Assembly: GCA_963677455.1 (NCBI GenBank)
Contig: OY781971.1
Coordinates: forward strand, 5,889,180 to 5,953,179
DNA from: an uncultured Draconibacterium sp.
Lineage (GTDB): Bacteria; Bacteroidota; Bacteroidia; Bacteroidales; Prolixibacteraceae
Reading direction: 5' to 3'
Length of the DNA stretch: 64,000 nt
Shown here: one piece after another, positions 1 through 3,886 of the stretch
Numbering within the stretch: the first letter of the stretch is position 1
How the letters are laid out: every line of letters starts with the position of its first letter
The notes under the pieces: model-generated
What the model saw: the letters and a program-made list of their open reading frames with translations, nothing else
The model's database searches: none
What the model was told of the DNA's origin: nothing
Program-made: the position numbers and the translations under genes

Positions 1-642
1 ACAAACTTGGCGGTGTACCAGGATAGTGTGCTGAAACATACTGCAGTAGTCCCGTTTGGAGGGCAGGTAATTACCAGCGACATAAAAGAAGGTTGCTCGA
101 TATTTTTGAAAAAAGCGGAGTTGTTAAAAGTGAAATATGGACAAGCGATGGGCGATTTTGCCGATGATCGTAAGGTCGTAACCATAGCCGGAGAGAATGG
201 TTGGGAGCCGCGAGATATTTCCTTTAAAAGTTTGGCGTATATTATTCAGGCACGCCTTGAGGAGATTGTTGAGTGTGTGAATGATCAGATCAGTCAGGCC
301 GGAATTGAAGACGGAGTAGGCTCGGGAGTTGTTATAACCGGCGGAACGAGTAACATGGATAACATTATCTCGTTGGTGAAGTTTAAAACGGCGCTGGATG
401 CACGGAAAGGACACTCGCTGATTTATCCTGCAACACGCAAAGAAGAATTTCAAAACCCCGAATACCTGACAGCCTTGGGCGCATTGAAAATGGTATTAAG
501 TTCCGGTGAAAATTTCACGGGAAATACGCATAATAAAAGAGTAAAACGGAAGGAAAGAGGCTTTGCACCATTAATTAAAAATGTGGTTCAGGGAGCCTTG
601 GACTTATTTGATACCGAGCAATCTGATTTAGAGTTAAATTAA
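1..642 (+). CDS. ftsA: Cell division protein FtsA, C-terminal part (5' truncated by window edge)
   Basis: Actin-fold motifs HTAVVPFGGQVITSDIKEGC, IIQARLEEI and GVVITGGTSN; directly upstream of ftsZ; frame is open back to position 1. Confidence 0.93.
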   Translation, partial: TNLAVYQDSVLKHTAVVPFGGQVITSDIKEGCSIFLKKAELLKVKYGQAMGDFADDRKVVTIAGENGWEPRDISFKSLAYIIQARLEEIVECVNDQISQAGIEDGVGSGVVITGGTSNMDNIISLVKFKTALDARKGHSLIYPATRKEEFQNPEYLTALGALKMVLSSGENFTGNTHNKRVKRKERGFAPLIKNVVQGALDLFDTEQSDLELN

Positions 643-653
643 AATAATACGAT

Positions 654-1946
654 ATGGCCGAAGAATTCGTAAACTTTCAATTTCCAAAAGCAACATCTTC
701 TATCATCAAAGTAATTGGTGCAGGAGGTGCAGGCTGCAATGCGGTCAATCACATGTACGAAGAAGGAATAGCAGGGGTTGACTACATTATTTGTAACACT
801 GACGCACAGGCGCTGGAAAACAGCAAAGTCCCAATTAAAATTCAGTTAGGAGTAACGCTTACTGAAGGACGCGGAGCTGGTAACAAACCCGAAATGGGTG
901 AACAAGCTGCCCGGGAAAATTACGAGGATCTGAAGAAAGTGTTGCAGGACAATACGAAAATGTTGTTTATTACAGCAGGAATGGGCGGTGGTACAGGTAC
1001 GGGATCGGCTCCGGTAATTGCCAGTTTGGCCCGCGAACTCGATATTCTTACTATTGCAGTGGTAACGATTCCGTCGCCTGCAGAGGGCAGAAAACGCTAC
1101 GAGCAGGCTCAGGAGGGCATAAACAAGCTAAAAGAATATGTGGATAGTATGTTGGTAATTAGCAACGACAGGCTGCATAACATTTATGGAGATCTTCCGG
1201 CAAGCCAGGCATTTAAAATGGCCGATAATATTGTAGCCACTGCGGTGAAAGGCGTAGCGGAAATTATAACGGTTCATGGCAATGTAAACATTGACTACAC
1301 GGATGTACACACTGTAATGCACAAGAGCGAAGTGTTTATTATGGGAACCGGTTTTTCTGTTGGCGAAGGCCGTGCAATGGAGGCTGTTCAGGCGGCACTC
1401 GAATCGCCACTTCTCGACAGCAACGATATTTTCGGAACAAAAAATATACTATTGAATATTATCTCCGGAAGCGAAGAAATTCGTATTGGCGAGATCGGCG
1501 AGATTATTGAAACGTTGCAGGAACAAGCTGGTCAGGAAGCCGATATTATTTGGGGTAACGGTTACGACGAGCGTCTTGGCGACAAAATTAGCGTTACCAT
1601 TTTGGCTACCGGTTTCGATACCAATCCAAATAGTATTTTACAACCCAAACAGGAAACAGAAAAATATGAGTTGAAAGAAGAGCCAACTCAACCAAAATAT
1701 GAAATAGACGAGGATCCGTTTGAGGATATGAACGAAGAGCCTCCCAAAAAGAAAGAAGAAGAGAAAGAAACGATTATTGTTTCTCCACCTCCAGTTGATC
1801 ATTCAGTACGGAAAAAGAACAAGAAAAAACGTGTGCGTAAAGAAAAAAGCAGAAAAGACGAACCTGTAACTGAATCGAATGTAGACAACTGGTTTTTTAA
1901 GAATTTTGGGAAGCTGTTTGATGATGATGATCAGAATATGGATTGA
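654..1946 (+). CDS. ftsZ: FtsZ paralog 1 (divergent, atypical C-terminal tail)
   Basis: GAGGAGCNA, CNTDAQAL, signature GMGGGTGTG, T7-loop variant NIDYTDV, VTILATGF; tail ends NWFFKNFGKLFDDDDQNMD. Confidence 0.92.
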   Translation: MAEEFVNFQFPKATSSIIKVIGAGGAGCNAVNHMYEEGIAGVDYIICNTDAQALENSKVPIKIQLGVTLTEGRGAGNKPEMGEQAARENYEDLKKVLQDNTKMLFITAGMGGGTGTGSAPVIASLARELDILTIAVVTIPSPAEGRKRYEQAQEGINKLKEYVDSMLVISNDRLHNIYGDLPASQAFKMADNIVATAVKGVAEIITVHGNVNIDYTDVHTVMHKSEVFIMGTGFSVGEGRAMEAVQAALESPLLDSNDIFGTKNILLNIISGSEEIRIGEIGEIIETLQEQAGQEADIIWGNGYDERLGDKISVTILATGFDTNPNSILQPKQETEKYELKEEPTQPKYEIDEDPFEDMNEEPPKKKEEEKETIIVSPPPVDHSVRKKNKKKRVRKEKSRKDEPVTESNVDNWFFKNFGKLFDDDDQNMD

Positions 1947-1974: not shown

Positions 1975-3357
1975 ATGGATAAGTTGGCAGATTTTAAATT
2001 TGATGAATCTCCGGGAGCCGCAATAAAAATAGTAGGAGTTGGAGGCGGTGGTGGAAATGCGCTAAATCATATGTACACGCAGGGCATTCGCGATGTAGAT
2101 TATGTGATTTGTAACACCGATTCGCAGGCGATGGAAAACAGTCCTATTCGGTCCCGTGTTCCGCTTGGAGCACAGTTAACAGAAGGACGAGGTGCGGGTA
2201 ACAAACCTGAAGTCGGACGTCAGGCCGCCGAAGAAAATATTGAAGACGTAAAGAAAGCCCTCAAAGAAAATACAAAAATGGTATTTGTTACCGCCGGGAT
2301 GGGTGGTGGAACCGGAACCGGAGGAGCTCCGGTAATTGCAAAAGCTTGTCACGAGATGGGTTACCTTACTGTGGCTATCGTTACCATTCCTTTCAGAAAC
2401 GAAGGACGCCGGAGGGTGAAGCAGGCCTTTGACGGGATTAAAGAGTTGGAAAAATATGCTGATTCGTTACTGGTGATTAACAATGAACGTATTCGCGAAA
2501 TGTACGGCGATTTTGGTATTTCTGAGGCTTTTTCGCGAGCCGATAATATTTTGGCAACTGCAGCACGTGGAATAGCTGAAATTATAACTGTCCCCGGTTA
2601 TATTAATGTTGACTTTGCCGATGTGGAAACCGTCATGCGAAGAAGCGGAATGGCGGTGATGGGAACCGGAGTTGCTACCGGAGAAAACAGGGCAGAAGAA
2701 GCTGTGGAATCGGCACTGAACTCTCCATTGCTGAATAATAACGACATTCGTGGAGCCAGAAATGTACTCATTCATATAACATCGGGCGACAAAGAAGTAA
2801 CAATGGCTGAAGTTGGCCGGATTACTGACTATGTACAAAATAAAGCCGGTTTCGATGCTGATCTGATTTGGGGAAATGGTGTTGATGAAAACCTGGATGA
2901 AGAGCTATCGGTTACTGTAATTGCAACAGGTTTTACTTCGAGTATACTCTCTGGTATTAGCGGCGAGCAGCAACAAAATGTGAAAGTGGTTTTGGACTCA
3001 TCAGGTGCCGACATTAGCGAGCAAGAGCGAAAAACGGAGAATAGAAATGTTCGTCCCGGTCAGAAAACGATAGAGTTTGATATTCAGAAAGAGCGTGAAA
3101 GAGAAGATATGGAATTTGAGAATTTATATCCGAACACATCGCGCCAACGAACAAAGAAGGAAGACCATTTGAATATTAAAGATTTCTCTGCACTTAGCGA
3201 AGAAGATATTGATGATTTGGATAAAGTGCCGGCATACATGCGTCGAAAAATAAGGATGAATGATCCAAAATTTCAGAAAAATACTTCGCGATATACGGTG
3301 AATAAAAACAACCAGATTTCGGACAGAAATAGTTATTTACACAATAAAGTAGATTAA
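1975..3357 (+). CDS. ftsZ: FtsZ paralog 2 (canonical Bacteroidota type)
   Basis: GVGGGGGNA, GMGGGTGTG, T7 loop NVDFADV; tail VPAYMRR...NSYLHNKVD resembles the usual Bacteroidota FtsZ C-terminus. Confidence 0.96.
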   Translation: MDKLADFKFDESPGAAIKIVGVGGGGGNALNHMYTQGIRDVDYVICNTDSQAMENSPIRSRVPLGAQLTEGRGAGNKPEVGRQAAEENIEDVKKALKENTKMVFVTAGMGGGTGTGGAPVIAKACHEMGYLTVAIVTIPFRNEGRRRVKQAFDGIKELEKYADSLLVINNERIREMYGDFGISEAFSRADNILATAARGIAEIITVPGYINVDFADVETVMRRSGMAVMGTGVATGENRAEEAVESALNSPLLNNNDIRGARNVLIHITSGDKEVTMAEVGRITDYVQNKAGFDADLIWGNGVDENLDEELSVTVIATGFTSSILSGISGEQQQNVKVVLDSSGADISEQERKTENRNVRPGQKTIEFDIQKEREREDMEFENLYPNTSRQRTKKEDHLNIKDFSALSEEDIDDLDKVPAYMRRKIRMNDPKFQKNTSRYTVNKNNQISDRNSYLHNKVD

Positions 3358-3370
3358 AAAAATCAATGTT

Positions 3371-3820
3371 ATGGCATTATTCGATCAGATAAACAACGAC
3401 ATAAAAGAGGCGATGAAAGCCCGCGAAAAAGAAAAGCTTGAAGCCCTACGTGGAATAAAAAAAGTAATGCTTGAAGCCAAAACCGCACAAGGAGCCGGAG
3501 CAGAACTTGGCGACGATGAAGCGCTTAAAATCATTTCGAAGTTAGCAAAACAGGGTAGCGATGCTGCAGCCATTTACAAGGAACAAGGGCGCGACGACCT
3601 TTACGAACAGGAAATGACACAGGTGAAAATTTACGAAGCCTATCTTCCGGAGAAAATGTCGGACGAGGCACTAACAGAAGCAGTAAAAGCGATTATTGCT
3701 GAAACCGGTGCCAGCAGCATGAAAGACATGGGAAAGGTTATGGGGATTGCCAGTAAAAAACTTGCCGGACAGGCTGATGGGAAAGATATTTCAGCCAAAG
3801 TAAAATCATTACTTGCTTAA
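3371..3820 (+). CDS. GatB/YqeY domain protein
   Basis: DIKEAMKAREK...EAYLPEKMS...MKDMGKVMG...ADGKDIS pattern typical of YqeY. Confidence 0.92.
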   Translation: MALFDQINNDIKEAMKAREKEKLEALRGIKKVMLEAKTAQGAGAELGDDEALKIISKLAKQGSDAAAIYKEQGRDDLYEQEMTQVKIYEAYLPEKMSDEALTEAVKAIIAETGASSMKDMGKVMGIASKKLAGQADGKDISAKVKSLLA

Positions 3821-3861: not shown

Positions 3862-3886
3862 AAAGGCTTGTAAATCACAAGCCTTT
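3862..3886. terminator. Bidirectional intrinsic terminator
   Basis: AAAGGCTTGT-AAATC-ACAAGCCTTT hairpin between convergent genes. Confidence 0.75.

Follow-up and report, generated by a model that had tools for sequence, protein, structure and literature searches.

How does FtsZ reach the membrane in a bacterium that encodes two copies of the protein, only one of which ends in the peptide that docks on FtsA? The question is raised by a locus at the start of a 64,000-nucleotide stretch of DNA from an uncultured Draconibacterium sp. of the family Prolixibacteraceae (contig OY781971.1, positions 5,889,180 to 5,953,179; hereafter the window), where a partial ftsA, two ftsZ genes (ftsZ1 and ftsZ2) and a yqeY-like gene follow one another on the plus strand. 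An earlier note on this DNA proposed that the first copy, FtsZ1, ends in an FtsA-like amphipathic helix, binds the membrane by itself and may tether the second copy, FtsZ2. Models of bacterial constriction depend centrally on how the Z-ring is coupled to the membrane, and knowledge of adaptor-free FtsZ derives in large part from engineered FtsZ carrying a foreign membrane helix. We find that the FtsZ1 tail is conserved and resembles the tails of FtsA, and on this sequence evidence we consider it probable that FtsZ1 binds the membrane directly via its tail.

Two FtsZ paralogues with different C-terminal ends

Translation of positions 1827-1946 gives KRVRKEKSRKDEPVTESNVDNWFFKNFGKLFDDDDQNMD as the end of FtsZ1, and translation of positions 535-642 gives KRVKRKERGFAPLIKNVVQGALDLFDTEQSDLELN as the end of FtsA, each followed by a stop codon; the strings and positions given for them in the earlier note are exact. 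Translation of both ftsZ open reading frames (ORFs) also bears out its observation that copy 1 lacks the PAYxR...NSxLHxxVD tail and that copy 2 keeps both parts of it. Neither FtsZ1 nor any of the 35 FtsZ1-type tails examined has the canonical C-terminal peptide, [DE]-[IV]-P-x-[FY]-[LM]-[RK]-[RK], which is present in nearly all of the approximately 50 canonical FtsZ copies examined, FtsZ2 (VPAYMRRK) included. An end of the NSYLHNKVD type is likewise absent from FtsZ1. In canonical Bacteroidales FtsZ this end motif takes the form [ND]N[SP][YF]LH[DN][NK][VA]D and lies 25-35 residues past PAYxRR in the great majority of approximately 28 families; FtsZ1-type copies are without it. An assembly or frameshift artefact as the source of the FtsZ1 tail was ruled out, as the tail is kept in hundreds of independent assemblies. 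A beta-clamp-binding motif (RQFNxLF compared with QL[SD]LF) was also considered and dropped, on account of its different spacing and of the missing glutamine in the Maribellus tail.

FtsZ1 has matches to PF00091 (Tubulin; 3.9e-46) and PF12327 (FtsZ_C; 2.3e-22). The two ftsZ genes are the only tubulin-family genes in the genome, which is a single 6.09-Mb contig, and the cores of their products share 56% identity over 319 residues without a gap. In an alignment of 34 FtsZ1 orthologues reaching down to 45% identity, the G-box GGGTGTG (G111-G117) and the T7-loop residues N212, D214 and D217 are invariant; both the G-box and the T7-loop N-x-D-x-x-D signature are found in FtsZ2 as well. Within the family, the two paralogue clades have the same conserved residue at 111 core positions and are told apart at only six, all conservatively, a pattern that would be compatible with co-polymerisation of FtsZ1 and FtsZ2. 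The FtsZ1 clade is monophyletic with 99% support in a quick maximum-likelihood (ML) tree. Its stem is 0.33 long versus 0.067 for the FtsZ2 clade, and present-day divergence of FtsZ1 is no faster; identity to the nearest orthologue in another genus is 81% for FtsZ1 and 76% for FtsZ2. The nearest FtsZ1 homologues belong to Maribellus (~85% identity), Draconibacterium (~74%) and other Prolixibacteraceae, and public annotation calls all of these FtsZ1-type proteins simply "cell division protein FtsZ". A polymerisation-competent FtsZ paralogue that has been kept by selection appears to be the best explanation of these alignments.

Conservation of the tail in orthologues had been named in the earlier note as a check on its proposal. 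The tail motif is kept in all 120 of the closest FtsZ1 homologues listed, and W413, F418 and F422 are at least 90% conserved over the 34 orthologues, the linkers of which cannot be aligned. When the window tail is plotted on a helical wheel (100 degrees per residue), W413, F414, F415, F418, L421 and F422 fall within one 200-degree arc (100-300 degrees), with K416 at 40 and K420 at 80 degrees on the edge of this hydrophobic arc. Over the last 30 residues, the hydrophobic moment of the best 11-residue stretch comes to 0.84, a value that 0.2% of same-residue shuffles reach, and values for the segment itself range from 0.63 to 0.84. Across the tails compared, the mean maximum hydrophobic moment is 0.64 where the canonical peptide is missing versus 0.39 in canonical tails. 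Wimley-White interfacial sums are favourable for all FtsZ1-type segments (-1 to -4.7 kcal/mol; -2.8 to -4.1 kcal/mol for the window segment), compared with +2.4 for the FtsZ2 docking peptide. AlphaFold2, run with the 34-sequence alignment, predicted a confident FtsZ1 core and drew a helix over exactly residues 410-422.

The end of FtsZ1 also resembles that of the adjacent FtsA, as the earlier note had observed for this one pair (a basic patch, a hydrophobic segment and an acidic stub), and the resemblance extends across the order. FtsA tails were read from the ftsZ-flanking loci of approximately 25 Bacteroidales genomes and made into a profile, which was compared with a profile of 35 FtsZ1-type tails. 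HHalign matched the two with a probability of 92.4% (E 5e-7, 45 columns), and the controls with the same FtsA-tail profile gave 0.3% for FtsZ2 tails and 0.7% for reversed FtsZ1 tails. Within genomes, local alignment of the FtsA tail with the FtsZ1 tail exceeded a z of 2 in nine of 15 cases, with values up to 8.3 against composition-preserving shuffles. A basic patch comes first in Bacteroidales FtsA tails, then an amphipathic helix closing with phi-F, then an acidic stub, often with x-[ML]-x at its end; this plan is common to families with one FtsZ and families with two. FtsA tails from one genus of another Bacteroidota class, such as RVKAWLKNFWAQL, have no acidic stub. As yardsticks we used what we take to be the tails of E. 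coli FtsA and MinD. This FtsA targeting sequence has a hydrophobic moment of 0.61, near the 0.63 of the window FtsZ1 tail, and lacks the acidic stub that is present in FtsZ1 and in the Bacteroidales FtsA tails. The FtsZ1 tail further occupies the position typical of FtsA-type sequences, at the extreme C-terminus behind a disordered linker (residues 322-385) and flanked by basic residues. FtsA and FtsZ1-type tails thus share a co-linear layout, which common descent and convergence would fit alike.

Lipid anchor or protein-docking peptide

Several observations weigh against a simple membrane-targeting helix. AlphaFold2 confidence in the FtsZ1 tail is low, with predicted local distance difference test (pLDDT) scores of ~40-55. 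Most Maribellus orthologues (NWFFKNFGLGKLF) and those of Draconibacterium (NWFYKNFGSKIF) have one or two inserted residues that include glycine (FGLGKLF, FGSKIF), and in these tails, with LG- or S-type insertions, the helical moment drops to ~0.25, indistinguishable from shuffles, and interfacial hydrophobicity is still high. The clean amphipathic helix is a minority form, confined to this genome and a few near-identical relatives. The claim of the earlier note that W/F/F/F/L/F fall on one helical face therefore stands for the window tail and fails for most of its close relatives, where the register is broken. A single ideal helix, or a fixed helical face, does not appear to be what is conserved; the conserved feature is better described from the alignments as a hydrophobic, aromatic and apparently interface-seeking segment beside a polybasic run. 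The register-breaking insertions and deletions (indels) therefore weaken the literal helix claim and leave the membrane-partitioning reading unharmed. To our knowledge, an acidic stub directly behind the helix is unusual among characterised membrane-targeting sequences, and it should weaken binding of the FtsZ1 tail to anionic lipids. FtsA retains its own tail in all of these genomes, and FtsZ1 would therefore be an added anchor rather than a replacement for a lost one. Finally, W/F/F is near-invariant in residue identity, the acidic Q-x-[ML]-[DE] end (such as Q-x-M-D) is conserved, and so is the EPVxESNVDN lead-in in Maribellus and Draconibacterium. Such conservation of residue identity would exceed the needs of a generic membrane anchor and would also fit a protein-docking peptide.

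The tail might then be a short linear motif that docks on a protein, making FtsZ1 a paralogue with a changed partner instead of a lipid-bound one; that partner could be FtsA, contacted elsewhere on its surface, a Z-ring regulator specific to the lineage, or a factor that reads the similar phi-F-acidic-x-M end of FtsA as well. Besides the residue identities just described, the tolerance of register-breaking indels between two hydrophobic clusters would suit two contact points better than one helix face, and the acidic stub and its end, common to FtsA and FtsZ1 tails, could mean that the two have a shared reader. N-V-D-N-W-F-F-K even loosely parallels K-V-P-A-Y-M-R-R and could be a diverged canonical peptide; the invariant proline of that peptide is, however, missing from the motif in 35 of 35 FtsZ1-type tails. 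The ORF listing of the window revealed no candidate partner gene linked to the ftsZ locus, and interfacial hydrophobicity is uniformly favourable. A further argument against docking comes from six other Bacteroidales families, in which the segment drifts widely (NWIQTTFDVLF, AKQFLINFF, GWIQTTIEGFF, MQQLIDFFGG, GWVASLF and NWFRRKFGNLF), with a basic run before each and acidic residues after most. Only the pattern is kept, which is atypical for a specific docking motif, and drifting sequence within a constant basic/hydrophobic/acidic pattern looks like the behaviour of a physico-chemical anchor. We therefore regard docking as rather unlikely, although it is the better of the two alternatives.

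The other, that FtsZ1 is a largely redundant or regulatory spare, the tail of which tunes filament bundling or turnover without anchoring, we consider improbable. Basic C-terminal variable regions have such a tuning effect in other FtsZs. Work on B. subtilis by Buske and Levin is said to have found that polybasic C-terminal ends of FtsZ promote lateral filament contacts; a bundling role would nevertheless leave the W/F-rich segment unexplained, and a spare copy is at odds with retention over 36 genera and with purifying selection on the core and on a specific hydrophobic tail. The two ftsZ genes of Segatella copri are redundant under antisense knock-down (bioRxiv 10.64898/2026.04.17.719208), but both copies are reported to keep the membrane-adaptor-binding C-terminal region and thus represent a different kind of duplication.

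Direct membrane attachment of FtsZ1 is accordingly the reading that we prefer, and it can be put as follows. The canonical docking peptide of FtsZ1 would have been replaced by an FtsA-type tail made up of a polybasic run, a W/F-rich amphipathic segment and an acidic stub. The polybasic run would draw the tail to anionic lipid head groups, and WFFxxFxxLF would then partition into the interfacial region of the membrane, probably in the form of a short helix, placing FtsZ1 filaments on the inner membrane without an adaptor. FtsZ2 would be tethered through FtsA by its PAYMRR peptide, and FtsZ1 would contribute a second, direct anchor to the ring. The gene structure, the missing canonical peptide, the conservation of the tail, its likeness to FtsA tails in profile comparison and the taxonomic distribution are observed, and we infer from them that the tail binds lipid, that it forms a helix and that the two FtsZs co-polymerise. 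FtsZ1 and FtsZ2 probably act in one Z-ring, possibly as co-polymers, since the two cores match almost completely at conserved positions and their genes would be transcribed together. The suggestion of the earlier note that FtsZ1 tethers FtsZ2 is plausible by way of such co-polymerisation.

Co-transcription of ftsZ1 and ftsZ2 is likely from the layout of the locus, because the gaps between ftsA and ftsZ1 and between ftsZ1 and ftsZ2 are 11 nt and 28 nt, respectively, and no terminator precedes position 3862. A hairpin scan detected no terminator-like hairpin between ftsA, ftsZ1, ftsZ2 and yqeY, the 28-nt gap included. Both ftsZ genes lie directly 3' of ftsA, the position expected in the division and cell wall (dcw) cluster. 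No sequencing run identified as RNA was found; the matching runs were marked as DNA or as of unknown kind.

Table 1. Features of the ftsA-ftsZ1-ftsZ2-yqeY locus, with coordinates in the window
Feature	Coordinates	Strand	Basis
ftsA, 3' part (213 residues in the window; gene start upstream of the window)	1..642	+	Pfam FtsA PF14450, E 1e-21; ORF listing
FtsA tail, basic patch KRVKRKER	535..558	+	Translation
FtsA tail, amphipathic segment GFAPLIKNVVQGALDLF, presumed membrane-targeting helix	559..609	+	Hydrophobic moment 0.51-0.63
FtsA tail, acidic stub DTEQSDLELN and stop codon	610..642	+	Acidic stub general in Bacteroidales FtsA tails
ftsZ1, whole ORF (430 residues)	654..1946	+	Pfam Tubulin and FtsZ_C
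ftsZ1 globular core, residues 1-321 (with the GTPase and the FtsZ C-terminal domains)	654..1616	+	Pfam; AlphaFold2 core mostly pLDDT >90
ftsZ1 disordered linker, residues 322-385 (64 residues), E/K/P-rich	1617..1808	+	Not alignable among orthologues; pLDDT <50
ftsZ1 tail, polybasic run RKKNKKKRVRKEKSRK, residues 386-401	1809..1856	+	Translation; nearly all FtsZ1-type tails have a basic run here
ftsZ1 tail, acidic/polar spacer DEPVTESN	1857..1880	+	Orthologues from Maribellus and Draconibacterium keep EPVxESN
ftsZ1 tail, hydrophobic/amphipathic segment VDNWFFKNFGKLF, candidate membrane-targeting sequence	1881..1919	+	Low-confidence predicted helix; hydrophobicity; conservation
ftsZ1 tail, acidic stub DDDDQNMD and stop codon	1920..1946	+	Conserved as [DE]n-Q-x-[ML]-[DE]; parallels FtsA stubs
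ftsZ2, canonical FtsZ (460 residues)	1975..3357	+	Pfam Tubulin 9e-44, FtsZ_C 8.9e-27
ftsZ2 conserved C-terminal peptide VPAYMRRKIRM, FtsA-docking type	3226..3258	+	PAYxRR in canonical FtsZ of ~45 Bacteroidales genomes
ftsZ2 terminal motif NSYLHNKVD	3328..3354	+	Another conserved end motif that typifies Bacteroidales FtsZ
yqeY-like gene, the final one ahead of the terminator	3371..3820	+	Pfam YqeY 2.5e-44
Terminator-like hairpin, first strong one after ftsA-ftsZ1-ftsZ2-yqeY	3862..3886	both	

Distribution and origin of the upstream copies

The tandem pair, recognised by two FtsZ_C matches, is present in approximately 115 of 121 Prolixibacteraceae genomes, representing 36 genera. Among 301 Bacteroidales genomes from 137 families, nearly all encode a single FtsZ; six families beyond Prolixibacteraceae have extra tandem copies, two of them with three copies, and one of the six is represented by Balneicella halophila and the others by uncultured Bacteroidales. 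In a survey of 401 Bacteroidota genomes, none of the approximately 90 Bacteroidia genomes from other orders had a second FtsZ. A phylum-wide phenomenon was thereby ruled out, as the only extra FtsZs outside the class were in one genus of another class. Some genomes of that genus have two to three paralogues, which are 32-47% identical to FtsZ2. These copies are unrelated to the Bacteroidales case, because they are dispersed and each keeps two PAYxRR-like motifs.

In the tandem arrays, the last gene is always canonical, with PAYxRR and an end of the type ...NSYLHDNVD. All upstream copies lack both; their ends consist of a basic stretch and a short segment that is hydrophobic and aromatic, with acidic residues after it in most; examples are DNWFHRQFTRFFEDSD, ESWLKRMFGSILDEGDD, DNWFRRKFGNLFNEDG, NWIQTTFDVLFNADEE, AKQFLINFFDDLEE, GWIQTTIEGFFTS, MQQLIDFFGG and GGWVASLFDEKDD, and the common pattern can be written W-phi-x-[KR]-x-F-x-x-phi-F. 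In the three-gene arrays of two uncultured families (f29 and f66 in our survey), where the last copy is canonical, the two upstream copies differ in their basic/hydrophobic/acidic tails, as in AKQFLINFFDDLEE and NWIQTTFDVLFNADEE. Both tandem copies of Balneicella halophila lie on very long branches (2.3-3.0 substitutions per site), and the upstream one ends KKKKTSTKRGGGMQQLIDFFGGTDVRDDVEM. Two genera depart from the usual arrangement. The FtsZ2-type copy of one Prolixibacteraceae genus (g18) seems to lack PAYxRR and keeps an ...NPFYHDQAD end, and its FtsZ1 has the divergent tail GGGMFDGIKKIFGKLVKAPEDQNFK. In another genus (g25), only the canonical copy was seen within a 4.5-kb stretch and the upstream ORF is not FtsA-like; the locus may be rearranged, or the stretch may be too short.

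The non-canonical copies of the seven families fall into approximately five groups in the quick ML tree, the backbone of which is unresolved. An approximately unbiased (AU) test did not reject a single clade for all 34 non-canonical copies (p 0.765), and the tree constrained to such a clade was 16.7 log-likelihood units better than the quick free tree. A single origin would thus be allowed by the phylogeny.

It is possible, although we hold it only tentatively, that the FtsZ1 tail is FtsA's own anchor, and that it was captured once, as the paralogue itself arose, in a lineage ancestral to Prolixibacteraceae, Balneicella and a number of uncultured Bacteroidales families. One tandem duplication, with its left end in the tail-coding region of ftsA and its right end in the ftsZ linker, would produce ftsA, then an FtsZ core fused to an FtsA tail, and then an intact ftsZ. 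Such an event would place the chimeric copy upstream and the canonical copy last, which is the order seen in all seven families, and the model fits this gene order and the HHalign likeness to FtsA tails. A trace of the capture at the DNA level is not expected, because divergence is too great. If the model is correct, the result would be a natural version of the engineered membrane-targeted FtsZ; it would form co-polymers with FtsZ2, and the Z-ring would in part no longer depend on FtsA.

Comparison with known systems of membrane attachment

One counterpart in design is artificial. Osawa, Anderson and Erickson reportedly fused the FtsZ core and linker to the MinD helix in 2008 and obtained contractile rings in liposomes without FtsA. 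FtsZ1 is similarly organised, with a core and linker followed by an amphipathic segment in place of the FtsA-binding peptide. It is, however, natural and long conserved, and it stands beside a canonical FtsZ. A culturable, walled and free-living family (Maribellus, Draconibacterium and relatives) thus appears to have made this construct naturally, and to have long retained it alongside an intact FtsA and a canonical FtsZ. Should the tail prove to bind lipid, the family would offer a natural system in which to ask how a direct anchor contributes to a ring that FtsA tethers, a bacterial counterpart of the division of labour between FtsZ1 and FtsZ2 in plastids and Asgard archaea, and possibly a case of a paralogue that gained function by capturing the tail of a neighbouring gene.

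FtsA of E. coli, B. subtilis and T. maritima has a C-terminal membrane-targeting sequence (Pichoff and Lutkenhaus in 2005 and Szwedziak et al. in 2012, as related in PMC12583498). The FtsZ1 segment is likewise short, amphipathic and at the extreme C-terminus, after a flexible linker and with basic flanks. It differs in being part of FtsZ, and its membrane binding is predicted.

Mycoplasma group 1E FtsZs have terminal amphipathic helices and no canonical peptide, and the C-terminal helix of M. genitalium FtsZ was shown to bind liposomes and to localise to the membrane in E. coli (Dutta et al., bioRxiv 10.1101/2023.08.29.555414). FtsZ1 also lacks the FtsA-interacting peptide and has a terminal amphipathic motif instead. 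The Mycoplasma proteins are single FtsZs of wall-less organisms with reduced genomes, whereas FtsZ1 belongs to a pair of paralogues and comes from Gram-negative bacteria that are walled and free-living and have a canonical FtsZ and a tailed FtsA; no sequence relation between the two kinds of tail is visible.

In Odinarchaeota, OdinFtsZ1 is bound to the membrane by an N-terminal amphipathic helix, OdinFtsZ2 is tethered by SepF via its C-terminal tail, and the two proteins interact in vitro (PMC12583498). Two paralogues that divide direct and adaptor-mediated attachment are what we propose for Prolixibacteraceae. The archaeal helix is N-terminal, its adaptor is SepF and the paralogues are anciently diverged, whereas the Prolixibacteraceae pair is a bacterial tandem duplication.

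The plastid pair of the green lineage provides a third comparison. Plastid FtsZ2 keeps the conserved peptide and binds the membrane protein ARC6 (PMC11285052). According to the account in the same article, which draws on Liu et al. 2022, plastid FtsZ1 has lost the ARC6 interaction and has a short C-terminal motif that binds the membrane weakly and directly and shapes the ring; the motif is described as an amphiphilic beta-strand ending RR/KLFF (PMC11285052). As in Prolixibacteraceae, FtsZ2 keeps the conserved peptide, and FtsZ1 has lost it and has a C-terminal motif. The plastid pair is of independent origin, is not in tandem and involves no FtsA.

Within Bacteroidales, Segatella copri DSM 18205T has the two redundant ftsZ genes mentioned above (Cosi et al., bioRxiv 10.64898/2026.04.17.719208). 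It belongs to a different family, both of its FtsZs are reported with the adaptor-binding C-terminal region and no FtsA-like tail is described; its duplication is probably separate from that of Prolixibacteraceae. A 2025 preprint describes at least five independent ftsZ duplications in bacteria, often with truncated copies, and does not mention Bacteroidota. In the literature searched, we found no publication that pairs FtsZ with Prolixibacteraceae, Draconibacterium, Maribellus or Marinilabiliales.

Since the paralogues of Bacteroidales are tandem duplicates that occur in only a few families of a single order, we expect their tail to have originated separately from the membrane motifs of Mycoplasma, Odinarchaeota and plastids. 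These three groups already provide examples of self-anchoring FtsZs; what the Prolixibacteraceae locus would add is a bacterial tandem-paralogue variant, in which direct and adaptor-mediated attachment are split between two neighbouring copies.

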